From positions 348-64,347 of the forward strand of contig CAYGTO010000003.1 of NCBI GenBank assembly GCA_964352815.1: a stretch of 64,000 nucleotides of DNA, in the 5' to 3' direction. The DNA comes from an uncultured Azospirillaceae bacterium (GTDB taxonomy: Bacteria; Pseudomonadota; Alphaproteobacteria; Rickettsiales; UBA3002). A program made the position numbers and the translations under genes. Below the pieces are notes generated by a model. It was given only the letters and a program-made list of their open reading frames with translations. It did no database searches and had not been told where the DNA came from. Below, in pieces: positions 3,037 through 59,580 of the stretch. Each line of letters starts with the position of its first letter. Position 1 is the first letter of the stretch.

Positions 3037-3672
3037 ATGATCAAACCGTTTACCATGATTGGTCTCATCCTCTTGCTTTTGGCAGGGACGGTTGCGCTTG
3101 GCTATGTTCTCTCGCGGCCAGAAGCGCCGATCAGCACGCGTAATTTTGTCGCACCAAGTGCTGAACCCACTGCGCACGACAAGACTTCGCTTTCAGTAGC
3201 ACCTGACTTTACTGCTCCGATATTGCACCCTGCTTCACAAGAAATGATTACGTTATCAGAGCATCGTGGGCGCTACGTGCTGCTGAATTTTTGGGCAAGC
3301 TGGTGTAGCCCGTGCCTAACCGAAATGCCTGAATTTATTACCCTCGCAAAGGCTCATCCGGATGATATCACCATTCTCGCACTGACCATTGATAGTAAAC
3401 AAGAGAAAGCGTCAGCATTTGTCACTGACACCTATGCTGAAGCGCTGGGTGACGCAAACAATATGATCTTTGCATGGGACGAAGCCGCACGCATTTCGCA
3501 AAAAAAGTTCGGCACATTCCGTATTCCGGAAAGCTACCTCATTGACCCGGAAGGTCAGATTATAAAGAAGTTTGCCGGCCCGGTGATAGAAGAGGATATA
3601 AACGAAATAGAAGCCGTCATTGCCACGTCAAGCGAGCAGAAAGCGAGCGCGCACAGGCAATCCATTCCATGA
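3037..3672 (+). CDS. TlpA/ResA-like periplasmic thiol:disulfide oxidoreductase (thioredoxin fold)
   Basis: N-terminal TM anchor (MIKPFTMIGLILLLLAG). Thioredoxin active site FWASWCSPC. Lies directly downstream of ccsBA. ATG at 3037 preferred over GTG at 3001, which overlaps ccsA. Confidence 0.8.
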   Translation: MIKPFTMIGLILLLLAGTVALGYVLSRPEAPISTRNFVAPSAEPTAHDKTSLSVAPDFTAPILHPASQEMITLSEHRGRYVLLNFWASWCSPCLTEMPEFITLAKAHPDDITILALTIDSKQEKASAFVTDTYAEALGDANNMIFAWDEAARISQKKFGTFRIPESYLIDPEGQIIKKFAGPVIEEDINEIEAVIATSSEQKASAHRQSIP

Positions 3673-3692
3673 ATGTCAGCAGACATTCATAT
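3616..3692 (+). repeat. Palindromic dispersed element, family 1 (GTCATTGCCACG..AAGCGAGCAGAAAGCGAGCGC..CAGGCAATCC..ATGAATGTCAGCAGACATTCAT)
   Basis: Near-identical copies at 10791-10862 (reverse) and 46966-47044. Partial copy at 49924-49973. Overlaps the last ~19 codons and the stop of tlpA. Confidence 0.7.
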
Positions 3693-5430: not shown

Positions 5431-7407
5431 TCAGGCTGCGCTTTGCTCTGGCTGGAAGGCGCGTTTTCTAAAGCTTACACGGAAACACGAGCCCTCTCCA
5501 GGCGTCGACTCTACCGTAATCATCCCATCATGCATCGTCACCACCTTCTTACAGATCGCAAGGCCAATACCCGAGCCTGCATATGCATCTTTGTGGTGGA
5601 GGCGTTTAAAAATATCAAAAATCTGTTTCTGATATTCGGGCGCAATGCCGATGCCATTATCTTGGACTAGCACATACCAATATTCTTCATCCTCTTTAGC
5701 AGAGAGGGTGATTACGGGAGTGCTATCGTCTTCCTGATATTTAAGCCCGTTTGCAATAAGGTTCTGAAACAATTGATAGAGCGGAATTTTATAACCCCAA
5801 ATCGTTGGTAAATTGTGGCTAATGATTTGCGCGTTATCTTGCTCCAAACGCGAGACAAGGTTATCACGCACATGTTGTATAACCCCCTCTAATTCGATCT
5901 TCTCTACCTTCTTATCGCCGCGATCGACTGACGAATAGGCAAGAACATCAGAAATAAGAGTCTGACCGCGCTGCGCGCCGTCGAGTAAGAACTTCAAATA
6001 GGCATCTAACTGACGATCTACTTTACCTTGCTCTTTAAGATACGCCGCTATTTTTTGTGAAAAACTACTAATCATACGCAGCGGCTCTTGCAAATCATGC
6101 GAGCAAATATAGGCAAATTGTTCAAGCCGTTCATTCGCCTCGGTCAACTTTGTAATAAGCTTCTCACGCTCAGTGATATCGCGACCAAGGCCAAGAATAT
6201 AGACCTCTCCATCCACCCCCTGAAACCGCAGTCTTTGAGTAAATAAGGTGCGTTTATTCCCATCCGGGAAGACAAGTGTCTCAATTTTACTGGAATAGCC
6301 GCTCGCAAAAGCCAGCTTGTCTTCTGCTAAGAATTCTTCAACGTCTTTTGGGTCATAATCTTCGAATGTCGTGCTACCAATAATATCGTTCCTGAGTTTA
6401 TTAGGATACAGAGCAAAGAAAGCCTCATTCGCCTGAACGATTCGAAATTCTCTGTCTTTTACAAAGATCAAATCAGGGTTATTATCCATCATGAGCTTGA
6501 GGAAATGTTCGGATTCACGAATCTTACGCTCTTGCGTTTTGACTTCCGTGACGTCTGTGTGCGTGCCAATCATCCGAACGGGCTCTCCTTTTTCATCCCA
6601 CTCCACGACCTTCCCTTGGCAAATCACATACACGGTTGGCCCATCCTTATGCCGATATCGCACTTCTTGCGTAAAAGGGTACGCCCCCTTACTTTCGATG
6701 TGCCTTTTGAGATTATCATTTACCAGCACCAAATCCGTTTCAAAGATAAGCGCCTGCCATTCCCTTGGATGATGCGCTTTCTCATCTGGTGCGTAGCCAA
6801 GCATTTCCCAGAAACGCGGCGACATGTATTCATAATCCGTCTTCAAATGCCAATCCCAATAGCCATCATACCCCTGTTCGAGATAAGCTTGGATGGTCTT
6901 TTGGTGTGCCATGATCATCTTTTCCGAGTTTGCCTGTTCGGTGATGTCCTGGAAAATGCCAAACACTGACACAACCTCGCCCGTCTCATCCGCGGTACAT
7001 TCACCCTTCGAATAGACATGGCGCGTTTCACCATCATGGCCGACTAAGCGTGCTTGAAACGCAAAGTCTTTACCTGTTCGGATCGCCGTATCCACCACAT
7101 GGCTAACATATTGAAGATCATCTTGATGGTAGAACTGCAACGCAGAGGTCAGATCGGGTTGATAGGTTTCGGGGTCTACACCATGAATACGATAAATCTC
7201 CCTAGACCAAAAAAGAGTGTTTTCAACCAAATCAATGCGCCAATGCCCTAGCCCCGCAAACTTTTCAACCATTTCGAGGTAAGCGCTATGCGTTTTTATA
7301 TCTGGAATAGTGACTGTTTCGGGCATAATGATAGAGAATGATTGAACTGGAGTATACTCAGAATCGGGGTTGCATACCAGCACTTGTTGCACCATGCTTC
7401 CTATCAA
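5431..7407 (-). CDS. Multi-PAS sensor histidine kinase
   Basis: Several PAS/PAC-like segments. HisKA H-box ICSHDLQEPLRMI. HATPase N/G boxes (NLIANGLKYQ, DNGIGIAPEY, GSGIGLAICKKVV). True start may be the internal Met at 7326. Confidence 0.85.
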   Translation of the reverse strand: MIGSMVQQVLVCNPDSEYTPVQSFSIIMPETVTIPDIKTHSAYLEMVEKFAGLGHWRIDLVENTLFWSREIYRIHGVDPETYQPDLTSALQFYHQDDLQYVSHVVDTAIRTGKDFAFQARLVGHDGETRHVYSKGECTADETGEVVSVFGIFQDITEQANSEKMIMAHQKTIQAYLEQGYDGYWDWHLKTDYEYMSPRFWEMLGYAPDEKAHHPREWQALIFETDLVLVNDNLKRHIESKGAYPFTQEVRYRHKDGPTVYVICQGKVVEWDEKGEPVRMIGTHTDVTEVKTQERKIRESEHFLKLMMDNNPDLIFVKDREFRIVQANEAFFALYPNKLRNDIIGSTTFEDYDPKDVEEFLAEDKLAFASGYSSKIETLVFPDGNKRTLFTQRLRFQGVDGEVYILGLGRDITEREKLITKLTEANERLEQFAYICSHDLQEPLRMISSFSQKIAAYLKEQGKVDRQLDAYLKFLLDGAQRGQTLISDVLAYSSVDRGDKKVEKIELEGVIQHVRDNLVSRLEQDNAQIISHNLPTIWGYKIPLYQLFQNLIANGLKYQEDDSTPVITLSAKEDEEYWYVLVQDNGIGIAPEYQKQIFDIFKRLHHKDAYAGSGIGLAICKKVVTMHDGMITVESTPGEGSCFRVSFRKRAFQPEQSAA

Positions 7408-8022: not shown

Positions 8023-8056
8023 TAGCTTCGCAGAAGTCTTGGGAGGCTGGAGCGTT

Positions 8057-8162
8057 CAGATCAGCTACTATTTTTCTTCAATTTCGTGTACTCAATTTTG
8101 AAAAACAGAGCTTTCTCTGATTTTGCGTTGAAAATGGATATTCAATCCATTTTCATCCGCAA
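8057..8162 (-). ncRNA. Candidate structured RNA element, copy C, immediately 3' of tRNA-Ala
   Basis: Shares TTGCGGATGAAAA-[hairpin 1]-CAACGCAAAATCAGAGAAAGCT-[hairpin 2]-AGCTGATCTG with copies at 12003-12104 and 28167-28268. Hairpin 1 shows compensatory changes. Hairpin 2 has a different sequence but still pairs. Confidence 0.4.
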
Positions 8163-8238
8163 TGGTGGAGCCTAGGAGATTCGAACTCCTGACCTCTTCG
8201 CTGCCAGCGAAGCGCTCTACCAACTGAGCTAAGGCCCC
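8163..8238 (-). tRNA. tRNA-Ala (anticodon GGC)
   Basis: Hand-folded cloverleaf: acceptor GGGGCCT/AGGCTCC with the G3:U70 Ala identity pair, anticodon loop CTGGCAG, T-loop TTCGAAT, encoded CCA. Confidence 0.95.
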
Positions 8239-8407
8239 ACGAGAATAGGAACATAATCGATTCCACCCACGCCGCAAGCATTAAGATCATTGCGCTTCGC
8301 ATGGCTGTACAATATCGCTGCATTAGCGTTGTCGTCTCGAGCAGCTGTGCTATTAAATACCCATCGCACAGCGCGGTATCACATACGAAGTAAATGAGGA
8401 GAGAACC

Positions 8408-9067
8408 ATGTCACCCATCACACGCACACTCGGCGTCGCACTGATTTCAGCCGTCGCGCTTTCTGGCGCAGCTCACGCCGACGGTTTCAAATTATGCGGC
8501 CAAGTCGCTAACGTTAACGACCAGATTCGTGACTGTGTCGTCACCAAAAATGCACATCAATTCAGCACGCTCAAGGATATGAAGAAGCTACGCAAAATGA
8601 CCATTACGGCAAAAGCGTATCGCCTAGATGACAAAGGGGCCGCCTATTTCGGACAAGCACCAAACCTAGAAAAAACCTTCAAATATTTTGCTGTGCACCA
8701 CGACAATCTCACAGCTGAAGGCATCAAATCATTCGAAGGCTTGCAAGCACTTGAAGAGGTCTACTTCTACAAATCGTCGCTGCCAGATGAAGGGATGAAA
8801 TCCATAGCGAAACTAAAAAACCTAGAGAAATTCGGCCACAGCGCGCCAAAGAATTTCGACGGTTCTGGTCTCGTTCATCTAAAAGCGCTGCCTAAGCTGA
8901 AAAAATTGAATCTGTCATACAGCTCGATTCCGCTAGAGAATTTGAAAGTGCTCGCCGAATACCCTGCACTTGAAGTGCTCGATTTGAATAAAACAGATCA
9001 CACACAGGAAGACCTTGAATTCTTGCTCATGGTGAACCCTGATATGCGCATCTTGACGGATCACTAA
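8408..9067 (+). CDS. Secreted leucine-rich-repeat (LRR) protein
   Basis: Signal peptide (ALISAVALSGAAHA). Repeated LxxLxxLxL units (LKNLEKF, LKALPKLKKLNLSYS, LENLKVLAEYPALEVLDLNKT). Confidence 0.7.
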   Translation: MSPITRTLGVALISAVALSGAAHADGFKLCGQVANVNDQIRDCVVTKNAHQFSTLKDMKKLRKMTITAKAYRLDDKGAAYFGQAPNLEKTFKYFAVHHDNLTAEGIKSFEGLQALEEVYFYKSSLPDEGMKSIAKLKNLEKFGHSAPKNFDGSGLVHLKALPKLKKLNLSYSSIPLENLKVLAEYPALEVLDLNKTDHTQEDLEFLLMVNPDMRILTDH

Positions 9068-9085
9068 GAGTCAATCATTACGAAG

Positions 9086-9122
9086 ATTCCCCTGAGTGCG
9101 TCAGTGCTTGGGGGATTTTTTT
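9086..9122 (+). terminator. Rho-independent terminator candidate after the LRR gene
   Basis: ATTCCCC...GGGGGAT stem followed by TTTTTTT. Lies between convergent genes. Confidence 0.5.
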
Positions 9123-9130
9123 GCGAAAAA

Positions 9131-9451
9131 TTAGCGGCCACGGCTGTGAGAGACTTCCGTTTCATTACTCCCTATTACACGGCTTAGTTGCTGTATGTCC
9201 TGATGATCAGACACAGTAATAAGCGTATCATTATTAACGTCTTTCATTGAAAACCAATTAATTCCGAGCACCTCAAGAGCGTTGACAATGTCAGCATTAC
9301 TTCGCACTTCCAAGCAACCCGTGACTTTGACACTCATAGCTCCCTTAGGCCCCCCACTCCATGATTGTCTTTTCACTATTTCTCTAGCGCGGGCTTCATC
9401 AATAGAAGGATTACTCGCTATAAAAGGGTCTGTGACAATGGAGGTGGGCAT
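9131..9451 (-). CDS. Hypothetical protein (106 aa), third gene of an orphan operon
   Basis: ORF tightly coupled to the upstream ORFs (9-nt gap). No family recognised. Confidence 0.5.
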   Translation of the reverse strand: MPTSIVTDPFIASNPSIDEARAREIVKRQSWSGGPKGAMSVKVTGCLEVRSNADIVNALEVLGINWFSMKDVNNDTLITVSDHQDIQQLSRVIGSNETEVSHSRGR

Positions 9452-9460
9452 GTGAGTAAT

Positions 9461-9679
9461 CTATCGCCCACGCGCGGCGTTGTGAAGTGATAATGAAGCG
9501 GGCTCAATGCTGAAATCAGCCGCAAGCGCCTGTTGATGCGGCGCGAGGGCGGCGGCCACCAAATCAGACGCACGTTCTGCATGCACTTCCCTCGTCGCAT
9601 TACCCGCGCCATAGATGCCATTAAGTGCTTCACGCATATCGGCAATCGAAGCGCTATTCATGTTACGCGGCAACGCCAT
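9461..9679 (-). CDS. Hypothetical small protein (72 aa), second gene of an orphan operon
   Basis: Start overlaps the end of the 329-aa ORF by 17 nt. No family recognised. Confidence 0.4.
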   Translation of the reverse strand: MALPRNMNSASIADMREALNGIYGAGNATREVHAERASDLVAAALAPHQQALAADFSIEPASLSLHNAARGR

Positions 9680-10652
9680 GGGGCACCTCCATAATCGTCA
9701 GAATGCTGTCATGCAGCCGGTCAGCAAACGCGTCGCGCTCTTTATAGGGGAAGGACGGCTTTTGCTTGAGAATAAAAGCGATATCCAGGCGCACATACTG
9801 CAGGTAATGCTGCAAAATTGGCATGCGATACGCATTCCCCTTTGCGCATAAAATCACTTCCATCATCGCCGCAAACCGCGCACGTTGGCGAACCCGGTCG
9901 GGTGATGAGTTCACCGACGGAATCCCACCTTCAAGGACCGATTGCGCTTGGCGATATTCTTGATCACGGCTCGGCGCGTGAATGTTCCAGCGCTCAAGAA
10001 GATAGGCGTCGATCGCTTCAGCAAGCGTGCCGCGGCCAATCAATTTCTCCATCGCAAAGCACACATCAAATAACGCACCGGTCGAATGGCGACGGCGGCC
10101 AGTTTCTTCGGGATAATCGAGATGCTGCGCAGCCAAATGGATAAACAGATTGTGCGGGAATCCACCCGGCGCAGCAGCATCAAGATCGTCAACGTGGAGT
10201 TCCATCGTTGAATTTGCATTCACATATTTCGCAGGGACCGGCGCGGTTCCCGGGCCATGCATCAGCCACTTACCACGCTCGGTGAAAATTTCGACAAAAT
10301 CGAGCGAGCTATCAGCCGCCTCATACATCTGGCGCGCGAAGGTCGCGAGCGCCGGCAGTGCCCAGTGCGACATACCATCCAGCACCTCATCATGGAACAG
10401 CGCCGCGAGCTCGTTCCAGCTTTCAATCTTCGCCTCGCAATGCACCCAGCCATCCTTATCGAAATGGGTGGTGAGCGGCGCGGGGTTTTTGACCCGCTTG
10501 ATCACGAGCTGCTGACGCGGAATGGCCCCGGTCACCTCACACGGCGTCACTTGGCGCAGCGTCACCAGTTTCGGCAGCGCGACATTGAGCGCAATCAGCG
10601 GCGCAAATGCCTCGCATGCATCGTTATAGAGCGTGTCCAGTTTATTCGTCAT
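9663..10652 (-). CDS. Hypothetical protein (329 aa), first gene of an orphan operon
   Basis: Long ORF with coding-like composition. No motif recognised. Confidence 0.6.
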   Translation of the reverse strand: MTNKLDTLYNDACEAFAPLIALNVALPKLVTLRQVTPCEVTGAIPRQQLVIKRVKNPAPLTTHFDKDGWVHCEAKIESWNELAALFHDEVLDGMSHWALPALATFARQMYEAADSSLDFVEIFTERGKWLMHGPGTAPVPAKYVNANSTMELHVDDLDAAAPGGFPHNLFIHLAAQHLDYPEETGRRRHSTGALFDVCFAMEKLIGRGTLAEAIDAYLLERWNIHAPSRDQEYRQAQSVLEGGIPSVNSSPDRVRQRARFAAMMEVILCAKGNAYRMPILQHYLQYVRLDIAFILKQKPSFPYKERDAFADRLHDSILTIMEVPHGVAA

Positions 10653-10705: not shown

Positions 10706-10862
10706 GTCATCCTCGGGGCATTTGTCAGACCTGTCCTCCGAAGCTTTAGCGTAGGAGGAAGACAAATGATCCCGGGGATCCAGAATTGAAATGTCAGGAA
10801 GACATTCATGGAATGGATTGCCTGGATGCGCTCGCTTTCTGCTCGCTTACCGTGGCAATGAC
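10706..10862. repeat. Nested palindromic elements (family 2 carrying an inserted CCTCC..GGAGG hairpin, then family 1 in reverse)
   Basis: GTCATCCTCGGGGCATTTGTC...GACAAATGATCCCGGGGATCC resembles 59581-59625. The inner hairpin resembles 25492-25527. 10791-10862 is the reverse complement of the 3616/46966 element. Confidence 0.7.
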
Positions 10863-11010
10863 AGCATTTTAACGAGCGAAGCCAGCAGGCGTAGCCCTTC
10901 AGTTTCAGAAAATACACAAGCGAAGTCAGCAGACTTCGCCAGTCATGAACCCGCGAAGCGGCGTTCCATCGCGAGATCAGGAGATCGAGCGGGGAACAGA
11001 AAAAACAATT

Positions 11011-11062: not shown

Positions 11063-11914
11063 TTATGCGCGGCCCGCTTCCATCGATGCCAGCTCTTGCT
11101 GCGCACGCACCATATCTGCGTGGCCCATCTGAGGCCCGCCCTGACGCATCGCTGCTTCCATGGCTGCCATTTCTTCTGGCGTGACTTGCGGCATGCCGCC
11201 TTGCGGAGCGTAGGCTGCATTGTCATAGCCCATCTCATCCTCTTTGCTACCACCGAAGAGCGCACGTGCACCGAGGATCGCACCACCGATGATTGCTAAA
11301 CGGCCTGCAGCGCTTGCAGCGCGACCACCCAACCCTTCATAGGCTTTGATAGTTTCCGTGAGCTTCCCACCATTCTCTGCCACACGCGTCATGCCGGTGA
11401 ATGGCTTAACCATCCAATTCCATGCTTTGGTTAATCGTCCTGCCTTCTCAAGCCCACCGAGCGCCGCCTTCTCAAGATTCTTGATCACTCCGGCCAGTTC
11501 AGCACCTTCCACTGTAAAAGCTGCTTTAAAAGCTTCCTTGTCACCAAGCGCTTTCTTGACAGCTTCTTTGATGGCTTTCTCTGCTTCGCCCTCTTTCGCC
11601 AAATTTTCAGCTTTCAAGCCTTTCAAACTTTCCGTAACTTTCTCTGCCAAGGCTTTAAATGCGCCCTCTTCGGTTTTTACGGCGAGATTCTCAGCGCCCT
11701 TAATGCCTTTTATTGCTTCTTCGAGCTGGGCTACGAGCTCGTTCTGAATCTTTGATGCTGCATTTTCACCACCGAGATTCTCTGTAAGTGAGGCAAGCGC
11801 CCCCTTACTTTCAAACGCCTTCTTCATTTCAGCGAAGAACCCGCCTTTAATTGCTTCTTTATTCGTCAGTACTAGCACTGCTTCTTCTGTTGCCGCTTTT
11901 GCTTCTTCAGCCAT
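11063..11914 (-). CDS. Hypothetical Ala/Lys/Glu-rich protein with Gly-rich hydrophobic segment
   Basis: Start MAEEAKAAT preceded by SD AAGGGGA. Helical A/K/E repeats, then RLAIIGGAILGARALFGG. No family recognised. Confidence 0.65.
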   Translation of the reverse strand: MAEEAKAATEEAVLVLTNKEAIKGGFFAEMKKAFESKGALASLTENLGGENAASKIQNELVAQLEEAIKGIKGAENLAVKTEEGAFKALAEKVTESLKGLKAENLAKEGEAEKAIKEAVKKALGDKEAFKAAFTVEGAELAGVIKNLEKAALGGLEKAGRLTKAWNWMVKPFTGMTRVAENGGKLTETIKAYEGLGGRAASAAGRLAIIGGAILGARALFGGSKEDEMGYDNAAYAPQGGMPQVTPEEMAAMEAAMRQGGPQMGHADMVRAQQELASMEAGRA

Positions 11915-11950: not shown

Positions 11951-12006
11951 AGTATGCACATGCTTTGTTACAGTTTTATGACAGTCCGGTGACGGTTGTA
12001 TGACAA
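11951..12006 (-). promoter_or_regulatory. Tandem Pho-box-like direct repeats plus -10 hexamer
   Basis: Gene strand reads TTGTCATACAACCGTCAC cgga CTGTCATAAAACTGTAAC, then 10 nt, then CATACT. Confidence 0.5.
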
Positions 12007-12104
12007 TTGCGGATGAAAACGAATTGAATATTCGTTTTCAACGTAAAATTAGAGAAAGCTAGTCATGCGAGATGGCGGTCGAAGCATGGCTAAGCTGATC
12101 TGTG
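12003..12104 (+). ncRNA. Candidate structured RNA element, copy A
   Basis: Hairpin 1 is TGAAAACGAAT-TGAAT-ATTCGTTTTCA, perfect 11 bp. Hairpin 2 is AGCTAGTCATGC...GCATGGCTAAGCT. Conserved linker CAACGTAAAATTAGAGAAAGCT and 3' GCTGATCTG. Confidence 0.4.
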
Positions 12105-12311: not shown

Positions 12312-13550
12312 TCAATTATCACTCATCTTCAACGCTTCAATAAAAGCGGTTTGCGGGATGTCGACATTCCCGATCGAGCGCATCTTTTTCTTACCTTTCT
12401 TCTGTTTATCCAGAAGCTTACGCTTCCGCGACACATCGCCGCCATAGCATTTCGCGGTCACGTCTTTACGCATCGCGGCAATGGTTTCGCGCGCAATCAC
12501 TTTGCCGCCAATCGCCGCTTGAATCGGAATCTTAAAGAGATGACGCGGGATCAAATCCTTCAAACGCCCACACAGCGCCCTGCCCCGCGGATCGGCCTGG
12601 CTGCGATGCACCATCATCGCCAGCGCATCGACATTCTCGCCATTGACCAAAATGGTCACCTTAACCAGATCACCCTCCTCATAGCCATCCATCTCATAAT
12701 CGAAGCTGGCATAGCCTTTGGTGCAGCTCTTCAGCCGGTCATAAAAGTCAAACACCACCTCATTAAGCGGCAAGCGATACACCGCCATCGCGCGGCTGCC
12801 GACATAGGTCAGATCCTTCTGAACGCCGCGTTTCTCGGTGCAAAGCGACAGCACATTGCCGAGAAATTCATCGGGCACCATGATCGTCGCCTTGATCCAC
12901 GGTTCTTCAATGCTGGCGATTTGCGTCGGGTCGGGGTAATCCGCCGGGTTATGCAGCTCCTTGGTCTCGCCATTGCTCAAATGCATTTTATAGACCACGC
13001 TCGGCGCGGTGGTCACCAGGTCACAGTCAAACTCGCGCTCGAGCCGCTCCTGGATGATTTCCAGATGCAGTAGCCCTAAAAATCCGCAGCGAAAGCCAAA
13101 GCCAAGCGCTTGAGATGACTCCATTTCATAGGAAAAGCTGGCATCATTCAACCGCAATTTCGCGAGCGACTCTTTTAAATGTTCAAACTCACCATTATCG
13201 GTCGGATACAGCCCACAAAACACCACTGACTGCACTGGCTTAAAGCCCGGAAGCGGCTTATCCGCAGGCTTTCCCGCATCGGTGATGGTATCCCCCACAT
13301 TGGTGTCGGCCACCTGCTTAATCCCGGTCATCATATAGCCGACCTCGCCCGCACTTAAGCTTTTTACCTGCGTCATTTTAGGTGTAAAATAGCCAAGTTG
13401 ATCGACGTCATGGACCGTTCCCGCATTCATCATCTTGATTTTCTGGCCTTTTTTAATCTCGCCTTCAAACACGCGAATGAGAATGATCACACCTAGATAA
13501 GTGTCATACCAGGAGTCGATAAGGAGGGCTTTGAGGGGGGTGTCGTGCAC
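12312..13550 (-). CDS. lepA: Elongation factor 4 (LepA), C-terminal fragment (domains II to C-terminal domain), separate ORF
   Basis: GTG-initiated ORF beginning [20 protein letters not shown]. That is the point where LepA continues after the G domain. The rest is LepA-like through to the C-terminus. Confidence 0.85.
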
Positions 13551-13659
13551 GTCTATTCTTTAATATGTTCCATTTTCATCATTGGAACGCATCAATAGAG
13601 GATTAACAATTGGCTGTCACTATATTATAGTAGCTACGCACAATCAAAGGAGGCATCTG

Positions 13660-13893
13660 ATGAAACTGACTGAAGAACAGACACACCAGATTACGGATGT
13701 GTTTAAAAAAGATCCCGAATTTGCGCGATATGTTGAGAGTATCGTGAATGATCTGTGGGATAAGAGCGACGCTGACGGCCGCATGGCGTTGGCGGGCAAT
13801 GTCGCATTCCACTTTCAACAGCGCGGCGTTGAGCTTCCGGTGAGCGCGGATGGGAGTGGCATCACGGTTCAGGATATACACGCAGCGCAATAG
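13660..13893 (+). CDS. Hypothetical small protein (77 aa) encoded inside the lepA-splitting insert, opposite strand
   Basis: ATG at 13660 preceded by a strong SD, AAAGGAGG. No family recognised. Confidence 0.5.
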   Translation: MKLTEEQTHQITDVFKKDPEFARYVESIVNDLWDKSDADGRMALAGNVAFHFQQRGVELPVSADGSGITVQDIHAAQ

Positions 13894-13905
13894 GCCAGTT
13901 AGAGG

Positions 13906-14478
13906 TTAGGCCGCCATTTTCGGCGCGGGAAGCCGGGTGACGATCGCTTCGAGCATTTCGTCAATCCCAAGGCCGGTTTTCGCGGAACAGAGCACGGCTT
14001 CGCTCGCATCAATCCCGATCACATCTTCAATCTGCTCGCGCACTCGGTCAGGGTCAGCGGCAGGAAGATCGATTTTGTTGAGCACAGGAATAATTTCGAG
14101 ATCTAAATCAATCGCCTGATAGACATTGGCGAGTGTCTGCGCTTCGACCCCTTGCGCAGCATCCACCACCAATAGCGCGCCTTCGCACGCCGCCAAACAG
14201 CGGCTCACCTCATAGGCAAAATCGACATGGCCCGGCGTGTCCATCAGGTTGAGAATATAGGTCTCGCCATCCTTGGCCTTATATTCGAGCCGCACTGTCT
14301 GCGATTTAATCGTAATCCCCCGCTCGCGCTCAATGTCCATATTATCGAGCATCTGCTCACCCAAATCCCGGTCCTCCACCGCGCCGCAGGCCTGAATCAG
14401 CCGGTCCGCCAGCGTCGACTTGCCATGGTCAATATGCGCAATGATAGAGAAATTTCGAATTTTCGTGATGTCTGTCAT
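13906..14478 (-). CDS. lepA: Elongation factor 4 (LepA), N-terminal GTPase-domain fragment, separate ORF
   Basis: G1 [10 protein letters not shown]3 DTPGH, G4 NKID. Ends ...[12 protein letters not shown]-stop, where intact LepA proteins continue in frame. Confidence 0.9.
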
Positions 14479-14653: not shown

Positions 14654-14687
14654 TCGTCATCATACTGTCATAGAGCACCGCTATACT
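14654..14687 (+). promoter_or_regulatory. Pho-box-like direct repeat plus -10 hexamer upstream of the ankyrin gene
   Basis: TCGTCATCATACTGTCAT, 10 nt, TATACT. The ATG lies 12 nt further downstream. Confidence 0.5.
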
Positions 14688-14698: not shown

Positions 14699-15868
14699 AT
14701 GGCAATAACACGCGAGAGGAATAGCAAATCTGTGCGATCATCTAAAAAGCAAGAACCATTACTGAGAACTCTAGAAGAGCTTTTAATAGAGGAAAAATTA
14801 CAGCATGACAAGCTGCTAGAGGCGATTCGTGTAAAAGATAATAGTGTCGCGCTGGATCTTATACAAAGCGGCGTTGCTCTTGACGTTAAAAACATGTTTG
14901 GCTCTACCGCTCTACACGAGGCATGCTTAAAGCGCATGGAGCCCGTCGCCATCGCAATGATTCAACATGGCGCGCCTCTTGATGCAACCGATATGGGCGG
15001 TGAAACGCCTTTACATGCGGCATGTTCTCGCAAATTAGAAAAAGCCGCAGAGCATATGCTTGATCGTGGCGCCAGTGTAAACACTGAAAACCAACAAGGA
15101 GACACAGCGCTTTTCTACGCGAGCTTAACTGAAATGAGTGATACCGTTGCGGCCATGATTAACGCCGGAGCAAAGCCACTTTCTATGGGACAGCTCTCTT
15201 CTTTGAGTTCGGATCAAAAGGAGTCTCTCGCAGGCATTGCACATTCTTTGGCAAAGCAAAATATCCCTCTAAAACATCTTGTCACATCTGAAATCACAAA
15301 CGATTTTTACTTGGCTTGTATGATGGGATGGGAAGATGCGGCAATAGCAATTATAGAGCAAAAAGGCATTCCTACACGGCTCAACGACACACAAAATGCG
15401 CTGCATTGTGCGTGCTCGAAAGGTTTACATAGCGTTGCCAGCTTATTACTGGATACAAAGAAGGGGCCATCTCTACTGAAACAAAAGAATATATTTGGTG
15501 AGACCCCTCTTCACATTGCGTGCTCGAAAGGTTTGTCGGATATTGCTTTAAAAATGATAGAAATGGGTGCACCACTTGATGCTGTCGATAAAACTGGCAA
15601 CACCCCCCTGCACCGGGCATGTGAGCGTAATTTAGGTCATGTGGCAAAGCGTATGCTGGAAAATGGGGCCAACCCTATGATAAGTAACCTGGAAGGAGAT
15701 ACTGCGCTCTCCATTTCTAAACGCCTAGAGATCCCAGAAGTCGCAGAACATATAGATAGGAGGTTTACTCATGGTGCCATTGATGAGTGTGCACCATGTA
15801 ATGTACTTGAAATAGTTGATGCGAGCCTGCAACCACTCAGTGTGGAGTCAATAGACCAGCAACGATAG
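14699..15868 (+). CDS. Ankyrin-repeat protein
   Basis: Multiple ANK units (GSTALHEACLK..., GETPLHAACSRK..., GDTALFYAS, GETPLHIACSKG, GNTPLHRACERN, GDTALSIS). Confidence 0.85.
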   Translation: MAITRERNSKSVRSSKKQEPLLRTLEELLIEEKLQHDKLLEAIRVKDNSVALDLIQSGVALDVKNMFGSTALHEACLKRMEPVAIAMIQHGAPLDATDMGGETPLHAACSRKLEKAAEHMLDRGASVNTENQQGDTALFYASLTEMSDTVAAMINAGAKPLSMGQLSSLSSDQKESLAGIAHSLAKQNIPLKHLVTSEITNDFYLACMMGWEDAAIAIIEQKGIPTRLNDTQNALHCACSKGLHSVASLLLDTKKGPSLLKQKNIFGETPLHIACSKGLSDIALKMIEMGAPLDAVDKTGNTPLHRACERNLGHVAKRMLENGANPMISNLEGDTALSISKRLEIPEVAEHIDRRFTHGAIDECAPCNVLEIVDASLQPLSVESIDQQR

Positions 15869-18768: not shown

Positions 18769-19236
18769 ATGAACAAGAATCCTACCAAGCAGTGGAATGA
18801 ACGGCGGTTTTACAAACTTAGCCTTCTGCTGCCCGTTTTATTTCCCATTATGTTAGTGATGTTCGTCATCCCTATTGCCGTTATTTATGCAATGGTGACG
18901 GGTGAAACCGTAGATAGTTTTTTGGAAACAGATATTGGCTATGTGCTTCTATGGATCACGCTAACCTTTGTCGGAGGCATCATATTAGCATCTTTTATAT
19001 ATTTGTTATGTGTTCCTATTGGTCTGCTCATTACACGAAATTGGTCCATGTTTGCATTTAAACTCTGGGGAATTTCACTCCCCATTCAGCTCACTGGGTT
19101 ATCATACGCACTCTATGGTGAAGCATGGTTGGCACTTGGGCTTCTTGTTGGCTACTTCTACGTTGCACTGGCCTTCGCAATCGGCTATTTCAAAAAGCGG
19201 TATCATTTGAAACATGGGACGTATGTTGGTGGGTAG
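18769..19236 (+). CDS. Hypothetical integral membrane protein (155 aa)
   Basis: About four hydrophobic helices. No family recognised. Confidence 0.5.
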
Positions 19237-19251
19237 CCATCTTCGCCCCAT

Positions 19252-19322
19252 GTCATTGCACGATTTATTCGGGCAATCCAACCAAAAAACTCTTGGATTA
19301 CCCGGACAAGCCAGGTAATGAC
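19252..19322. repeat. Palindromic element (GTCATTGCACGATTTATTCGGGCAATCC ... GGATTACCCGGACAAGCCAGGTAATGAC)
   Basis: The same two hairpin modules occur in swapped order at 38390-38461. Partial copy near 25660. Confidence 0.65.
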
Positions 19323-19328
19323 AAGGAC

Positions 19329-20738
19329 ATGAACACCAAAACCCTCTACGATAAAATCTTTGACGCTCACCTCGTGCATGAGGCCGAGGATGGCACCTGC
19401 CTGCTCTATATCGACCGGCAGATGATTCATGAAGTGACCAGCCCGCAAGCTTTTGAAGGGCTGCGCATGGCGGGGCGGACGCCGCGTCATCCCGAAGCAC
19501 AGCTCGCGGTGGCGGATCACAATGTGCCGACCACGCCCGACCGCGCGCAGGGGATTAAGGATGAAACCTCGCGCATTCAGGTCGAGACGCTCGAGAAAAA
19601 CTGCGAAGAATTCGGCATCACCTATTTCAAAATGGACGATCTGCGTCAGGGCATCGTGCATATTGTCGGCCCGGAACAAGGCTTCACCCAGCCCGGCATG
19701 ACGATTGTTTGCGGCGATTCACATACCTCCACCCATGGCGCGTTTGGCGCGCTGGCCTTTGGTATTGGGACGAGCGAAGTGGAACATGTGCTGGCAACGC
19801 AAACGCTGATTCAAAAACGCGCCAAGAATTTGCTCGTCAAGATTGAAGGTGAGCTTGGGCACTATGTCACCGCGAAAGACATTACCCTCGCGGTGATTGG
19901 CAAAATCGGCACGGCTGGCGGCACCGGCTATGTCATTGAATATGCCGGCTCGGCGATCCGCAATCTGTCGATGGAAGGGCGGATGACCGTGTGTAATATG
20001 AGCATCGAGGCAGGCGCGCGCGCAGGCCTGATCGCGCCGGATGAAAAAACCTTTGACTATTTGAAAGGCCGCCCGATGGCACCGCAAGGGGCGGATTGGG
20101 AGAAGGCCGTCGCCTATTGGAATACGCTGCCCGCGGATGACGGCGCGCACTATGATGTGGTGGTCGAGTTGGATGCCAGCGAGATTGCGCCGCAAGTCAC
20201 CTGGGGCACCAGCCCGCAAGATGTGCTGCCAATCACCGGTCAAGTCCCCTCGCCTGACAGTTTTGATACCGGCCGCAAGGAAGCGGTTGAGCGCTCGCTC
20301 AATTATATGGGCCTCAGCGCCGGCACGAAACTCACCGATGTGCCGATTGATAAAGTGTTTATCGGCTCTTGCACCAATGGCCGGATTGAAGATTTGCGCG
20401 AAGTGGCGAAGCTGGCCGAGGGCAGAAAAGTTGCGAGCAATGTGAGGCTCGCCATGGTGGTGCCGGGATCGGGCCTGGTGAAACAGCAAGCCGAAGCGGA
20501 AGGGCTGGACAAAATTTTTGTTGCTGCCGGCTTTGAGTGGCGCGAGCCGGGCTGTTCGATGTGCCTCGCGATGAATGCGGACAAGCTCGAGGAAGGGGAG
20601 CGCTGCGCCTCGACCTCAAACCGGAATTTCGAAGGCCGCCAAGGCCGCGGCGGGCGCACTCATCTGATGAGCCCGGCCATGGCAACGGCTGCCGCGATCA
20701 CCGGCAAGCTTGCCGATGTTCGGAAACTGGCGGGTTAG
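19329..20738 (+). CDS. leuC: 3-isopropylmalate dehydratase large subunit
   Basis: [16 protein letters not shown]..., aconitase-family Cys ligands ([19 protein letters not shown]). The ORF-track N-terminal extension reads through a repeat and is rejected. Confidence 0.9.
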
Positions 20739-21658
20739 GCAGCGCCTAACGAATGTAATGGCGCTTCCTGAACAGTGCCATCTACTTGCGCGCCGTCTGC
20801 CACGGGTGACGGCTCTAATAGTTTCTTCATCGCTTTCAGATAACCATCGAACGTTTTGTACCCGATTTGTTTTGCCATCTCACCGCGAAACCGCTGAGAC
20901 TTAATCATGTCGCCCCTAATGCCTTGCACCTCATCACACATAACTTTGTATATATCTTTGATAATCTGCGCTGCTTGTGCGGCGTCTTGCACCACTCCAT
21001 ACGCCACAAGCTCTTCCGGTGTCGCCACGCGCATTTTATGGATGTCGACCTGCGCTGCCTTCACCGCATCCGTGCGACTCATATTCTGTGCCACTTCCAT
21101 GGTTAAGGCAGAAGCTTTCTCGGCATCTTTTTGCTCAATCTCGCCGAAAAGGGGCTGATCCACACCAAGCATACGGAAGACCAGGCCACGAATATTTTCA
21201 TTGATCTGATCTTTCGGAATAGCATTAAAATATTCGTCAATCAGCATTTCCACTTCTCCTCCTCGTGACGATTGAAGCGCCATACGCACACGCCCCATCG
21301 CAGGGAGATATCCGGCCTGTGCAAACACGTCATCAGCCATATCACCTATCGATTGCCTTTCATAATACGACAAGGTGAGAGGAATTTGCGCGAATGCCCA
21401 GTCATCAAGATGGACTGGTCCCTGACCCTCTAAAAAACCAATCTCCAACACATTGGCGAAGGCGAATTGTTCCTTTTTTGGGGGCAGGTACGCATGACTC
21501 CCAGCCTGTTTGATACAGTCGCCTGTTTCGCATCCTTCTTTCACTGCAGAAAGGTAAACATCCTTCTTTCCAGCCAGCGTAAGAAACGCCCGCGACATCT
21601 GCATAGGGATAGATTGGGTTGTTTGTAGTAGTTTTAATTCGTCTTCACGGTCCATCAT
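20735..21658 (-). CDS. Hypothetical protein (about 307 aa) inserted antisense between leuC and leuD
   Basis: Long ORF. Start placed at MMDREDEL, downstream of the predicted promoter. Its stop overlaps the leuC stop (TTAG). No family recognised. Confidence 0.6.
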
Positions 21659-21683
21659 TCTCTCATCAATTAAATGAAACGAT

Positions 21684-21728
21684 ACCATAGCGCACTGTCT
21701 GAGACATTGCATGACAGTTTGATGACAA
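21684..21728 (-). promoter_or_regulatory. Pho-box-like triple direct repeat plus -10 hexamer
   Basis: Gene strand reads TTGTCATCAAACTGTCATGCAATGTCTCA, then TATGGT 21 nt after the second repeat. Confidence 0.45.
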
Positions 21729-21793
21729 TTGGTTCAGCTTGACGGGTGCTAAAAACACTGCCAGACTTCTCTTCGCATCACACGGAGGAGCAT

Positions 21794-21952
21794 ATGTCAT
21801 TTTTTAGCAGTTTATTTTCTTGGTTTTCCAAAGCCCGTCGCCGCGAGCGGTTAAACCGCGAATGGCCTAGCCACGCCCATTCTGGCCACCGCGCTGCCGA
21901 CCCAAAAGACGGCATCCCAATGGACCCGGACGCACCGCACAAACCTTCATAG
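21794..21952 (+). CDS. Hypothetical small protein (52 aa)
   Basis: ATG at 21794 with SD GGAGGAG 4 nt upstream. Confidence 0.4.
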   Translation: MSFFSSLFSWFSKARRRERLNREWPSHAHSGHRAADPKDGIPMDPDAPHKPS

Positions 21953-21962
21953 GTACGACGCA

Positions 21963-22424
21963 ATGAAAAATGTACTCATGATCGTTGGAGCCGTGTTTCT
22001 CATCGGCCTCATCGGGGGAGGCGTCTGGATCGCCAGCATGATCTCAAAAGGTGCTGAACTAGACGCTTCCTCACGCGCGTTTGTGGAAGAGAAAATTCCT
22101 GAACTTGCGCGAAATAAATGGTATGGCCCCTATATGAGGCCGCTCGCACACAGTGCGTTTATGGAAGCCGTCTCCATGGAAGATTGGCAGCGCATCTCGA
22201 CGCTTTATTGGCAAAAGCTGGGCATGCTGAACGATTATGGTCCATGCGAAGGGCAAGCGACGATGAATTACACGCCAGAGGGTGAAGAAATCAGCGCCGA
22301 ATATGTCTGCGACGCGCGCTTTGAAAAAGCTAATGCAACCATTGAACTCCGCCTTTTTATTGAGAATAATGACTGGAAATTGGTCAACATATCGGTTAAT
22401 TCTCCTGTGTTCTTGAATCAGTAA
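21963..22424 (+). CDS. Hypothetical membrane-anchored protein (153 aa)
   Basis: N-terminal TM ([24 protein letters not shown]). No family recognised. Confidence 0.55.
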
Positions 22425-22432
22425 GGAGAAAC

Positions 22433-23041
22433 ATGGAATCATTCACGAAACATACGGGCCGCGCGGCGCCCTTGCCCTTGATCAATGTCGATACGGACAT
22501 GATCATTCCGAAGCAGTTTCTGAAAACGATTAAGCGCACCGGCCTTGGCGCGAATCTGTTTGACGAAATGCGCTTCACGAAAGACGGCGCGGAAATTCCG
22601 GAATTTGTACTGAATCAAGAAGCCTATCGCAGCGCATCCGTGCTGATCAGCGGCGATAATTTTGGCTGCGGCTCGAGCCGTGAGCATGCGCCTTGGGCAT
22701 TGCTGGATTTTGGTATTCGCTGCGTGATTGCGCCGAGCTATGCCGATATTTTCTATAATAATTGCTTCAAGAATGGGATCTTGCCAATCGCATTGCCAAA
22801 CAATCAGGTGGACGCGCTGACGCAAGTCGCTGCTAACCCGGATAATGAAATTACGATCGATTTAGAAAGCCAAAAAATCCGCGCGATGAATGTCGAATAT
22901 GATTTTGATGTCGATCCGTTTCGTAAACATTGCCTAATGAACGGGCTCGATGATATTGGTCTAACGCTCGAGAAAGCCGTATCGATCGATGCGTATGAAA
23001 CGCAGCGTAAAAGCGAAACCCCATGGCTGTTCGCGAGCTAA
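22433..23041 (+). CDS. leuD: 3-isopropylmalate dehydratase small subunit
   Basis: [28 protein letters not shown] and [17 protein letters not shown] motifs. Confidence 0.9.
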
Positions 23042-25491: not shown

Positions 25492-25690
25492 CTTGTCCTC
25501 CGTAGCTTTAGCGTAGGAGGAAGCGACGCGGCAGTCCATTCATACTGCAAGAATGGGTCGCGCCTGCCCGACGAAGCCTTGGCGCAGCAGGGTGGCGAAG
25601 GCTGGTCGTCAGCGCCAGTGCGCTTCCTCACGAAACGTCACTTCTATGCCATATTTCCCTTGGATTACCCGAATAAATCGGCTAATAACA
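25492..25690. repeat. Cluster of palindromic element fragments
   Basis: CTTGTCCTCCGTAGCTTTAGCGTAGGAGGAAGCGAC resembles 10730-10762. GGATTACCCGAATAAATCGGCTAAT resembles modules at 19252 and 38390. Confidence 0.5.
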
Positions 25691-25722
25691 TGCATTCACT
25701 AATGACGAAAGACTAAAGACCT

Positions 25723-26764: not shown

Positions 26765-28099
26765 CTAGGCGGCTCTCCCGAAGCGTCCTGCCCCCTCTTT
26801 ACGAATACGCGCCATGATTTCTCTATCTTTTTTCTCGACCTTGGCAATAAGATCACGCACCTTTTGTTTGGCCGCCACGTGCTCTGGCGTCAAGAACACT
26901 CCGGCGCGTACATCCCTAGTTTTTTCACCACCTTTCTTCGTCTGGCCATTGGCAAAGGGTGCAAGTGCCCGTATTTGACTATCACACGTCATATCGTTTC
27001 CATGCTTATCTTGCCCAGTTTGCTGGAGAATTTTCTCCTGATAGTCTCGGTCGGGCTGAATTTCAGAATCGGGTTTCTGCTCAATGCCTGCCCCTTGAGC
27101 AATCCGTTCTACATACTCTTCAAAGGGGAGAATGTCTGCTCCCTCATGCGCCCATGCGCAGGGTAGATAGGTGTGCTCAAGCTTAACTCCGGACATATCA
27201 TTTATTTCTCCGCGTTTTTCAAGCGCCGCCCGGATGACCTTGACTTGGTCCATGATCACTGGACGGAAAGACGGGCATGCTCTTAGCGCGCTGCGTATAT
27301 CTTCGGGCGTTTTGATAATTTTCGCACCTCGCTCGATGTCTTGTCCTTGCGCACGCAAATAGCCACGATATTCGCCTTCAAGCGCAGGAAGAATCGGAGT
27401 AAAGCGCGGGCCTTTGAGCACATGCCATGTTTCATTACATTTCGGAGTTGGCAGCAACAGCCCGGTCCTTAGCACATCCACCAGCTGCATTTCGCTTGGA
27501 AGCCCTGCCTGTATTGCCGTGATGGATGCTCTTTCTTGAACATGCGTGCTGCCATTCTCGCCGCGATATTGAGCCCCTTTCAGGTGAGGAATTAGGTTTT
27601 CAATGCCTTTTACTTCGACAATATACATTCGGAGCTTCTCTGGAGCTCCCGATTTTGTGGGATAGGCTACCGTGGCAAACTCCCGAATACCAGAGTCGCC
27701 ATTGTGCCTGACCAGGCTTACCCCATCATAAGGCTCGACTGTTTCTCCTCCCTTAGCTGTACCATTGGTATGGAGAATCCGGCTCAAGTCAATTCCGGTT
27801 TCTTCATGCACCTCTTTGATCGCGCCTTCAAGAATGGTTTTATCTGAATCGCTTTTGACACCGCCTTTCGCATAGGTGTAGAATTTTTGGCCATCTTTGC
27901 GAAATTTGCCTTCATTGTACGGCGCAACAATATGTGTGACCTTATGCGTACCACCTTTACCATCAGGCATTTCGACATCACCGATAATGAAGACCCCGGC
28001 CTTGCCGGGCTTATCTTTCATTTTTTCCGCACAATCGGCAATGTACCCGTTCCACCGCTTTTCGGGATTTTTAGGGGGTTTCTTTTTTGGTGCCATCAT
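26765..28099 (-). CDS. Hypothetical protein with N-terminal Nudix-like domain and basic NLS-like N-terminus
   Basis: GGVKSDSDKTILEGAIKEVHEETGI approximates the Nudix box (Gx5Ex7REUxEExGU, with K for R). N-terminus MMAPKKKPPKNPEKR. The C-terminal ~250 aa are unrecognised. Confidence 0.6.
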   Translation of the reverse strand: MMAPKKKPPKNPEKRWNGYIADCAEKMKDKPGKAGVFIIGDVEMPDGKGGTHKVTHIVAPYNEGKFRKDGQKFYTYAKGGVKSDSDKTILEGAIKEVHEETGIDLSRILHTNGTAKGGETVEPYDGVSLVRHNGDSGIREFATVAYPTKSGAPEKLRMYIVEVKGIENLIPHLKGAQYRGENGSTHVQERASITAIQAGLPSEMQLVDVLRTGLLLPTPKCNETWHVLKGPRFTPILPALEGEYRGYLRAQGQDIERGAKIIKTPEDIRSALRACPSFRPVIMDQVKVIRAALEKRGEINDMSGVKLEHTYLPCAWAHEGADILPFEEYVERIAQGAGIEQKPDSEIQPDRDYQEKILQQTGQDKHGNDMTCDSQIRALAPFANGQTKKGGEKTRDVRAGVFLTPEHVAAKQKVRDLIAKVEKKDREIMARIRKEGAGRFGRAA

Positions 28100-28124: not shown

Positions 28125-28170
28125 ATTATGACCGGTTTTGTTGAGAATATGTGTGACGGTTCTGTGACAA
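28125..28170 (-). promoter_or_regulatory. Pho-box-like direct repeat plus -10 hexamer
   Basis: Gene strand reads TTGTCACAGAACCGTCAC, 22 nt, CATAAT. The box is contiguous with structured-element copy B. Confidence 0.4.
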
Positions 28171-28268
28171 TTGCGGATGAAAAACGCTTGAATAGCGGTT
28201 CTCAACGCAAAATCAGAGAAAGCTTAGCCTATGTGAGACGAAGGTCGAAGCATGGCTTAGCTGATCTG
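28167..28268 (+). ncRNA. Candidate structured RNA element, copy B
   Basis: Aligns with copy A over ~100 nt. Hairpin 1 is degenerate (2 mismatches). Hairpin 2 is AGCTTAGCCTATG...CATGGCTTAGCT. Confidence 0.4.
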
Positions 28269-28844: not shown

Positions 28845-28846
28845 GC

Positions 28847-29299: not shown

Positions 29300-29308
29300 G
29301 AAATCATC

Positions 29309-31141: not shown

Positions 31142-31156
31142 AGACTGGAATTCGCT

Positions 31157-32035: not shown

Positions 32036-32135
32036 CATCAATGATGAGCGTTTTTCTTCCGGATAGAGCGCAAAAACTCATTGAAAATTAACTTTTTAGA
32101 ACTATTATAAATAGCATCATTAGGGAGACTTCATC

Positions 32136-38361: not shown

Positions 38362-38389
38362 ATGGGATACGCAAAGTATAAACGAAGTT

Positions 38390-59574: not shown

Positions 59575-59580
59575 ACTATT

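Follow-up and report, generated by a model that had tools for sequence, protein, structure and literature searches.

The Pho box, the site of the response regulator PhoB, consists of two CTGTCAT repeats with a 4-nucleotide (nt) A/T-rich spacer, forming an 11-bp unit, and has been described in Escherichia coli and in rhizobia (PMC4415409, PMC3131613). In Legionella, about 40 effector genes are under the direct control of PmrA and about 30 under that of CpxR, both of them winged-helix response regulators, and the sites of these regulators precede dozens of scattered lineage-specific genes, many of which are of unknown function (PMC6989116). Here we describe a set of 18-bp boxes of the Pho type in a stretch of 64,000 nt of alphaproteobacterial chromosomal DNA (contig CAYGTO010000003.1, about 52% G+C), hereafter called the window, by which we mean the whole stretch that was analyzed. 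We consider it probable, on balance, that these boxes are activator sites of a PhoB-type response regulator with a regulon of lineage-specific genes, and within this reading we favor a PhoB ortholog, phosphate as the signal and export of the gene products.

Each box is 18 bp long and is made up of two TGTCAY-type half-sites, that is, 7-bp units of the form T(G/T)TCAY that recur with a period of 11 bp and are separated by a 4-bp A-rich spacer. All nine boxes show the Pho-box pattern of two CTGTCAT-like direct repeats with an A/T-rich spacer; their spacers read ACAA, AAAA, CATA, AAAA, CAAA, AGAA, AAAA, AAAA and ATAA. Every one of them is intergenic, is oriented toward the next gene and lies 27–74 nt before its start codon. 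A preliminary description of this DNA had listed eight boxes and a second box for one of the genes, and the sequences and strands that it gave were all confirmed, as were its -10 hexamers and spacings.

Two of the boxes stand in tandem before the gene at 11063–11914(-), where the minus strand of 11951–12006 reads TTGTCATACAACCGTCAC-cgga-CTGTCATAAAACTGTAAC-aaagcatgtg-CATACT. The proximal box, CTGTCATAAAACTGTAAC at 11967–11984(-), ends 10 nt from the -10 hexamer CATACT (11951–11956), and the distal box, TTGTCATACAACCGTCAC at 11989–12006(-), is in phase with the proximal one at a distance of 22 nt. The same 10-nt distance is found for the box of the ankyrin gene, TCGTCATCATACTGTCAT at 14654–14671(+), relative to TATACT at 14682–14687, and for that of the gene at 60354–60782, TCGTCATAAAATTGTCAT at 60285–60302(+), relative to TAATAT at 60313–60318. 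A distance of 21 nt separates TTGTCATCAAACTGTCAT at 21711–21728(-), in front of the gene at 20735–21658, from TATGGT at 21684–21689. The four remaining boxes are placed 22 nt from the -10 hexamer: TTGTCACAGAACCGTCAC at 28153–28170(-), before the gene at 26765–28099 (CATAAT, 28125–28130); TCTTCATAAAACTGTCAC at 36223–36240(-), before the gene at 35451–36161 (TATGAT, 36195–36200); TCTTCACAAAACTGTCAT at 40805–40822(+), before the gene at 40880–42061 (TACACT, 40845–40850); and TCTTCACATAAGCGTCAC at 54615–54632(+), before the gene at 54706–56769 (TACAGT, 54655–54660).

The box is far commoner than expected by chance: the exact dyad GTCAY-N6-GTCAY occurs six times in the window against an expectation of 0.30, and none of 100 shuffled sequences reached six. 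The intergenic DNA that holds all nine boxes amounts to 9.4 kb, or 14.7% of the window. When dyads were enumerated over the whole window the result was swamped by codon periodicity, but in the intergenic DNA alone GTCA at a period of 11 was the best dyad that was not palindromic or of the hairpin type. In a leave-one-out position weight matrix (PWM), the nine sites scored 15.7–25.4 bits. With the window matrix, the best upstream score per gene was 20–27 bits for eight genes, 15.2 and 12.7 bits for two further orphans and at most 7.7 bits for all the rest. A second matrix was built from 58 E. coli PhoB sites determined by chromatin immunoprecipitation sequencing (ChIP-seq; PMC10294691), and since it was made solely from E. 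coli sites, it is independent of the window's own boxes. Here, eight boxes took ranks 1–8 of the window with 17.7–21.9 bits and the ninth scored 12.5 bits, so that the proposed match to the E. coli Pho box is as close as that of genuine E. coli PhoB sites. As a background, we used 1.43 Mb of leuC regions from 80 other alphaproteobacteria with at most 80% identity, chosen because these loci lack both the orphans and the boxes; they contained four exact dyads and one match of at least 18 bits.

The boxes are also selective with regard to gene class. They precede eight of about 17 genes that have no known family or encode eukaryote-like repeats and none of the 38 housekeeping genes (Fisher p = 2e-5). 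The preliminary description was thus correct in stating that housekeeping operons lack the box, but overstated its distribution in assigning it to almost every orphan, about half of which have one. In total, box promoters serve eight of about 45 transcription units (~18%) in the window.

The distances between the box and the -10 hexamer fall into two classes, with values of 10, 10, 10, 21, 22, 22, 22 and 22 nt. CATACT, TATACT and TAATAT belong to the 10-nt class of three promoters, and TATGGT, CATAAT, TATGAT, TACACT and TACAGT to the 21–22-nt class of five. For a pooled test of the spacing, the eight promoters of the window were combined with six from related organisms, giving 14 promoters in which a TAnnnT hexamer was located at an offset of 22 in seven, 21 in two, 10 in two (plus one CATACT) and 32 in one, compared to an expectation of about 0.2 for any single offset. 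The distal box of the 11063–11914 promoter lies at 32 nt because four 11-bp units run in phase. The center of the box is at about -31.5 in three promoters and at about -43.5 in five, on the same face of the helix, and the tandem boxes of the 11063–11914 promoter cover both positions; the suggestion that spacings of 10 or 21–22 nt are helically in phase is borne out. A -35 element is absent throughout, in that the best match to TTGACA at 16–18 nt upstream of the -10 hexamer agrees at two to three of six positions, against 2.4 for random sequence. A Pho box is placed 10 bp from the -10 element and takes the place of the -35 element; the agreement in position is partial here, with the -35 element missing throughout and a distance of 10 nt in three promoters, 21–22 nt in five and 23 nt in one further candidate. 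A -10 hexamer without a -35 element, combined with a direct repeat, is the design expected of an activator-dependent promoter that is served by a dimer of a winged-helix response regulator. Judged by its layout, the 10-nt class corresponds to the canonical pho-promoter design, and the 21–22-nt class to the same design with the box one turn further upstream. We also considered that the box might act as an RNA element, and rejected this since the box is located upstream of the -10 hexamer.

Evidence for conservation came from related organisms represented by assembled sequencing runs, namely L085 (Logan SRR6713915), L086 (SRR26541455), L087 (SRR28027657) and L088/L089 (ERR3534974/77), the last two from a run series that is shared with samples containing the window's organism. 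L085 and L086 encode homologs of the 687-amino-acid (aa) product of the gene at 54706–56769, at 8033–10009 and 631–2736, respectively. Both loci have the same convergent tgt neighbor as the window and a Tgt protein that is 82% identical, which is why we take them to be orthologous, and the 687-aa proteins themselves are 46–50% (L085) and 38% (L086) identical to that of the window. The gene has thus diverged far faster than its neighbor (46% and 38% versus 82% identity), and most of the upstream region has diverged as well, yet a box is present at the equivalent place, TCTTCATTTAATTGTCAC in L085 and TTGTCATCAAATTATCAC in L086, followed by ACA, a 22-nt spacer and TACTAT or TATTAT. We regard this conserved footprint as the strongest single argument that the box is likely to be a functional element. 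Boxes were also found in L087 before two genes without Pfam families and one Bmp lipoprotein gene, and in L088/L089 before a gene for a 413-aa protein without a Pfam family, here followed after 21 nt by TATAAT. L093, which is more distant, has a perfect box facing a row of genes for an epimerase, a glutathione S-transferase and a glutaredoxin. A second conserved patch, TTGC(G)CTGCA, is shared by the three orthologous promoters of the 687-aa gene (54585–54597 in the window), where it precedes the box by about 20 nt. It was not found in the other box promoters and may represent a gene-specific second regulatory site.

With the exception of one ankyrin protein, the products of the box genes have no family assignment or one below the threshold. 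The gene at 11063–11914(-) codes for a 283-aa protein without a Pfam or NCBIfam family, with a C-terminal hydrophobic segment and coiled-coil-like sequence. A clear ankyrin-repeat protein is encoded at 14699–15868(+), where the database gene call starts at a GTG at 14732; the fraction of G+C at third codon positions (GC3) is 0.40 in this gene, and its nearest homolog is 27% identical, with generic matches only. The 307-aa protein of 20735–21658(-) has no family and no other recognizable feature; its gene separates leuC from leuD, and none of 80 related leuC loci contains it. The gene at 26765–28099(-) encodes a 444-aa protein with a sub-threshold match to NUDIX and no homolog among 5.8 billion proteins, and the gene at 35451–36161(-) a 236-aa protein without a family, with hydrophobic segments and a coiled-coil-like tail. 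At 40880–42061(+) we find a divergent phosphohydrolase of the HD-GYP type (393 aa), whose best relative in the PDB is 5z7c, a cyclic GMP-AMP (cGAMP) phosphodiesterase (E = 1e-7). The product of 60354–60782(+) has 142 aa and no family or other recognizable feature, and the GC3 of its gene is the lowest in the window (0.35). On average, GC3 is 0.49 in the box genes compared to 0.59 in the other genes of the window.

The 687-aa protein of 54706–56769(+) belongs to a rare and fast-evolving family with 41 representatives among 1.84 billion proteins. Neither the protein nor a six-sequence alignment gave a match in the genome and metagenome contig collections, and a profile search with a 26-sequence alignment returned at least three proteins among the matches listed. 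Ser377, which lies within a GFSxGG motif (AFSQGG or GFSKGG), Asp449 and His476 are invariant in 26 members, and for this reason the protein is probably an alpha/beta serine hydrolase. A structural model (AlphaFold2) reached a mean predicted local distance difference test (pLDDT) score of 82.7; its best PDB matches were cutinase/PETase and Lp-PLA2, both weak (E > 0.01). The family may represent a new alpha/beta-hydrolase-like family.

The genes that lack families are scattered through a backbone of housekeeping genes. Among the approximately 60 open reading frames (ORFs) of the window, Pfam identified ccs/resB, rpsP-rimM-trmD-rplS, leuCDB, asd and sdhCDAB, as well as pyrB, pyrC, pyrF, typA, metZ/metX, tgt, queA and gyrA. 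In a search of 185,579 species representatives, the nearest genomes were metagenome-assembled genomes (MAGs) of Alphaproteobacteria with a LeuC identity of at most 80%, and LeuC of a Micavibrionaceae MAG was 73% identical. Look-ups with proteins of the window yielded short Logan contigs identical to it. In tblastn searches against the 80 related leuC loci, the backbone genes were recovered from most loci and the interspersed family-less genes from none. Two interruptions of conserved operons were observed. In the region 19125–23041, leuC and leuD are separated by two genes without families, 20735–21658(-) and 21963–22424(+), and in the region 28446–32936, a gene for an M48 peptidase is placed between sdhA and sdhB. 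The backbone genes are present at many related leuC loci, and the family-less genes that interrupt them at none.

Taken together, we think it very probable that a PhoB-type regulator binds the boxes and activates, rather than represses, the -35-less sigma-70 promoters of individually inserted genes. A head-to-tail dimer of a winged-helix response regulator of the OmpR/PhoB family would bind the 18-bp box, and the sigma-70-type promoters, with a TAnnnT -10 hexamer and no -35 element, would stay off unless RNA polymerase is recruited by the bound, phosphorylated regulator. One signal could in this way govern lineage-specific genes that occur singly and are scattered as insertions between the housekeeping operons. 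Within the window, the predicted regulon would comprise the ankyrin protein, the divergent HD-GYP protein, the NUDIX-like protein, the probable alpha/beta serine hydrolase, membrane-anchored coiled-coil proteins and small proteins. For the regulator itself, we give about even chances to the organism's own PhoB ortholog, with low phosphate as the signal, which may serve as a cue to the host or the environment. We favor the ortholog because the half-sites are indistinguishable from true PhoB sites and because the specificity of PhoB is conserved across the proteobacteria.

The products would most likely be exported by a route independent of Sec, for example a type IV system such as the one seen in a relative. 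On the L085 contig (409–6765), virB8 and virB9/cagX are divergent from two large genes without Pfam families (1056 and 496 aa), and no box was found in front of any of these genes. No N-terminal signal peptide was seen by eye in any of the box-gene products. Taken with the kinds of protein, the low GC3 and the fast evolution of the 687-aa protein described above, this would be more in keeping with export independent of Sec, or with other proteins of a host-interaction or accessory type, than with phosphate-scavenging enzymes of the periplasm. The preliminary description had proposed a regulon of the PhoB/OmpR family over orphan or effector-like genes. The regulon is supported by the match to the Pho box, by the in-phase distances to the -10 hexamer and by boxes kept at the orthologs of two species; the label effector-like is less secure, as it draws on the ankyrin protein, the absent signal peptides, the fast evolution and the virB8 and virB9 genes of the relative.

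Several observations weigh against a PhoB-type regulon of this kind. The 64-kb window holds no response regulator gene, no pst, phoU or phoB gene and no other pho gene, and no type IV secretion genes either, which were seen only in the relative. Unlike in the Pho regulon, no phosphate-related gene is found among the targets in the window, and the eight products all fall outside the known Pho-regulon families, the HD-GYP and NUDIX resemblances being weak. In five of the eight promoters the box is centered at -43.5, one helical turn further upstream than the canonical position in E. coli, 10 bp from the -10 hexamer. The proportion of transcription units with a box is far above that in known PhoB regulons, and an extrapolation to the whole genome would give a regulon far larger than any PhoB regulon described. 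About half of the orphans have no box, including a leucine-rich repeat protein and a tetratricopeptide repeat protein, and the homologs of the 687-aa gene in L087 and L088 have an inverted box only and no box, respectively. Furthermore, the boxes at 11989 and 28153 must be counted as a single observation, because they form the ends of one duplicated segment. Finally, one good box, CTTTCATACTATTGTCAT at 59568–59585(+), with a score of 17.6 bits in the E. coli matrix, lacks both a -10 hexamer where one would be expected and a gene downstream of it on the same strand, and may be a site that has decayed or has no promoter function. This box is followed by a hairpin resembling repetitive extragenic palindromes (REP), where the queA ORF has probably been called with too long a 5' end.

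Beyond the nine boxes, one additional candidate that was not in the earlier list, TCTTCATCATTTTGTCAC at 49425–49442(-), has TATCAT 23 nt downstream (49396–49401) and is followed by an ORF of 50 aa (49148–49300(-)) with an AAGGAG Shine-Dalgarno sequence. Of three weaker sites in the preliminary description, the one at 61969–61986(-), CCGTCATAGAATCTTCAT, is a possible box with a score of 15.2 bits, situated 61 nt upstream of a gene without a family (61359–61907(-)), although no -10 hexamer is present at the usual offsets. The other two were not upheld, since the site at 53384 overlaps two start codons and that at 13603 is a single half-site.

Alternative explanations concern the identity of the regulator as well as the nature of the element. 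A dedicated paralog of the PhoB/OmpR family, with a role like that of PmrA, could run a host-interaction regulon while the true PhoB keeps the pst and pho genes by means of a distinguishable box. This possibility is favored by a gene content unlike that of any Pho regulon, by the dominant 21–22-nt geometry, which is not that of canonical pho promoters, and by a very high site density, and there are dedicated winged-helix regulators for effector genes in Legionella (PMC6989116). We nevertheless treat the paralog as a tentative alternative: its half-sites would have to be indistinguishable from genuine E. coli PhoB sites, while coexisting paralogs normally diverge in DNA specificity, which limits cross-talk, so that a near-perfect Pho box favors PhoB itself. 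It is also conceivable that the boxes mark an ordinary, large phosphate-starvation regulon without any link to a host, in which the box genes would have poorly characterized functions in phosphorus scavenging or membrane remodeling, as HD and NUDIX phosphohydrolases, a lipase-like hydrolase and membrane proteins. The Pho regulons of environmental bacteria contain many hypothetical genes, the sequence of the box is canonical, and three of the eight products resemble hydrolase superfamilies (HD-GYP, sub-threshold NUDIX and the Ser-Asp-His alpha/beta hydrolase). We consider this unlikely in view of the lack of signal peptides, which typical periplasmic scavenging enzymes possess, the ankyrin-repeat and coiled-coil proteins in the set, the restriction of the genes to the lineage, their much faster evolution than that of their neighbors and the absence of any classical Pho gene among ten candidates. 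It is likewise improbable that the regulator is neither the PhoB ortholog nor a dedicated paralog.

Two further explanations would do without a PhoB-type regulator altogether. If the TGTCAY half-site served as a -35-like element for an alternative sigma factor of the extracytoplasmic function (ECF) type, this could account for the half-site that ends 21–22 nt upstream of a conserved -10-like hexamer in every promoter. Such a role is very unlikely given the two-unit direct repeat with its 11-bp period and the tandem in-phase copies, which are typical of response-regulator dimers, and given -10 hexamers that resemble the housekeeping TAnnnT. To our knowledge, a spacer of 21–22 nt is longer than any promoter of the sigma-70 family tolerates, and we rejected the ECF-type -35 element because the spacer is too long. 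Still less plausible is a reading of the boxes as elements without a regulatory role, be it scars or ends of a promoter cassette that was mobile or duplicated, or recombination sites that date from the insertion of the orphans. Two boxes do end a 115-nt duplicated segment, 44-nt direct repeats flank the HD-GYP gene together with its box, and orphans interrupt conserved operons; but outside the duplicated pair the promoters have only the box and the -10 hexamer in common. The fixed spacing to the -10 hexamer, the orientation that always matches the gene and the retention of the box in orthologous promoters, although the proteins are only 38–46% identical, led us to reject such scars.

The duplicated segment is about 115 nt long and is present at 11989–12102 and 28153–28268, with 83–87% identity between the copies, ending exactly at the two boxes. 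Its 58-nt core forms a hairpin with a conserved TTGAATA loop and compensatory changes in the stem. The core is also present at 8109–8166, directly after the CCA end of a tRNA-Ala(GGC) gene, and was not found in the contigs of the relatives. A link between the box and this tRNA-Ala flanking repeat was considered and rejected, as the repeat merely abuts two of the boxes. The 44-nt direct repeats, at 40668–40711 and 42100–42143 (89% identical), bracket the HD-GYP-like gene together with its box, an arrangement that looks like a joint insertion of gene and promoter. This pair is one of several families of REP-like hairpin repeats in the intergenic DNA, which also lie at 3616–3683, 10801–10865, 46966–47033 and 59660–59709, and at 19233–19324, 25656–25691 and 38388–38463.

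Some other features of the window were noted in addition to the boxes. The gene for one PAS histidine kinase is located at 5431–7407(-). A gene for LepA (EF4), at 12312–14478(-), consists of two ORFs, the break falling exactly where domain I meets domain II, with 13906–14478 corresponding to residues 3–184 and 12312–13550 to residues 189–594 of E. coli LepA. The two ORFs are in different frames and 355 nt apart, and the insert holds a small ORF on the opposite strand (13657–13893(+)) with an AGGAG ribosome-binding site; lepA is either a pseudogene here or a functional split gene. An alphaproteobacterial S-adenosylmethionine (SAM) riboswitch (Rfam RF00521, 37.1 bits) at 49697–49771(+) lies upstream of genes for a pyridoxal phosphate enzyme of Cys/Met metabolism and a homoserine O-succinyltransferase of the HTS family (49998–52372). 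ARAGORN called a 90-nt tRNA-Ala within the coding region of typA (48218–48307(-)); this is almost certainly a false positive, because Rfam does not confirm it.

How, then, does the proposed PhoB-type regulon compare to the systems described? The box is the same 18-bp element as that of the PhoB regulon in E. coli (pstS, phoA, phoB) and rhizobia, and it scores like the best E. coli ChIP-seq sites. Three of the window promoters have it at the canonical distance of 10 bp and lack a -35 element, as do Pho promoters, and the tandem in-phase boxes of the 11063–11914 promoter can be likened to the tandem boxes at E. coli pstS. In the PhoP regulon of Salmonella, the distance from the box (half-site TGTTTA) to the downstream -10 element is about one helical turn in some promoters and about two in others. 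We see a likeness in the two distance classes one turn apart (10 versus 21–22 nt here); regulator and half-site are different. By this comparison, one and the same regulator could act from either position on a single DNA face.

In architecture, the boxes resemble the PmrA and CpxR regulons of Legionella pneumophila and Coxiella burnetii, where a direct repeat is placed just upstream of the -10 element of scattered lineage-specific genes. An arrangement of this type, with a repeat before the -10 hexamer of single scattered genes, was found in 8–10 promoters within 64 kb and also in the relatives. The PmrA motif can be used as a predictor of effector genes, and the box in the window might be likened to it in this respect. 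Unlike the PmrA half-site, a TTAAT-type repeat, the half-sites in the window are all of the form T(G/T)TCAY and thus do not agree with PmrA in sequence. A further difference is that PmrA and CpxR operate in gammaproteobacteria with type IVB systems, whereas here virB8 and virB9/cagX are present only on the contig of a relative. Phosphate control of virulence and secretion genes offers another parallel, in that control of the PhoB type extends to host-interaction genes, also in an alphaproteobacterium with a VirB-type system. A pho box is present at Agrobacterium virG. There, PhoB exerts its control through a single regulator or operon, or a small number of them, and not directly on many individual orphan genes. 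Links between Pho control and virulence have been reviewed (PMC4415409). We found no paper that describes sets of effectors under the control of a Pho box in symbionts or predators among the alphaproteobacteria.

The match to E. coli PhoB sites makes the idea open to an inexpensive test in E. coli, and the promoters of the window would offer, for a single regulator, a natural set of geometries (-31.5, -43.5 and tandem). Should the box mark a host-interaction regulon, it would serve as a sequence handle for candidate effectors that have no homologs and would otherwise go unrecognized in a rare, uncultured clade, in the same way that PmrA and CpxR boxes have been used for effector discovery in Legionella and Coxiella. 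More speculatively, we can imagine that in a VirB-bearing alphaproteobacterial clade PhoB, or a recently split paralog, directly activates perhaps hundreds of inserted, fast-evolving effector genes per genome. If true, the 18-bp box with its geometry of 10 or 21–22 nt would be the first cis-signature to predict effectors in alphaproteobacterial symbionts, as does the PmrA box in Legionella and Coxiella. It would also show that the most conserved nutrient regulator of bacteria, or a close copy of it, has been recruited to newly acquired genes promoter by promoter.

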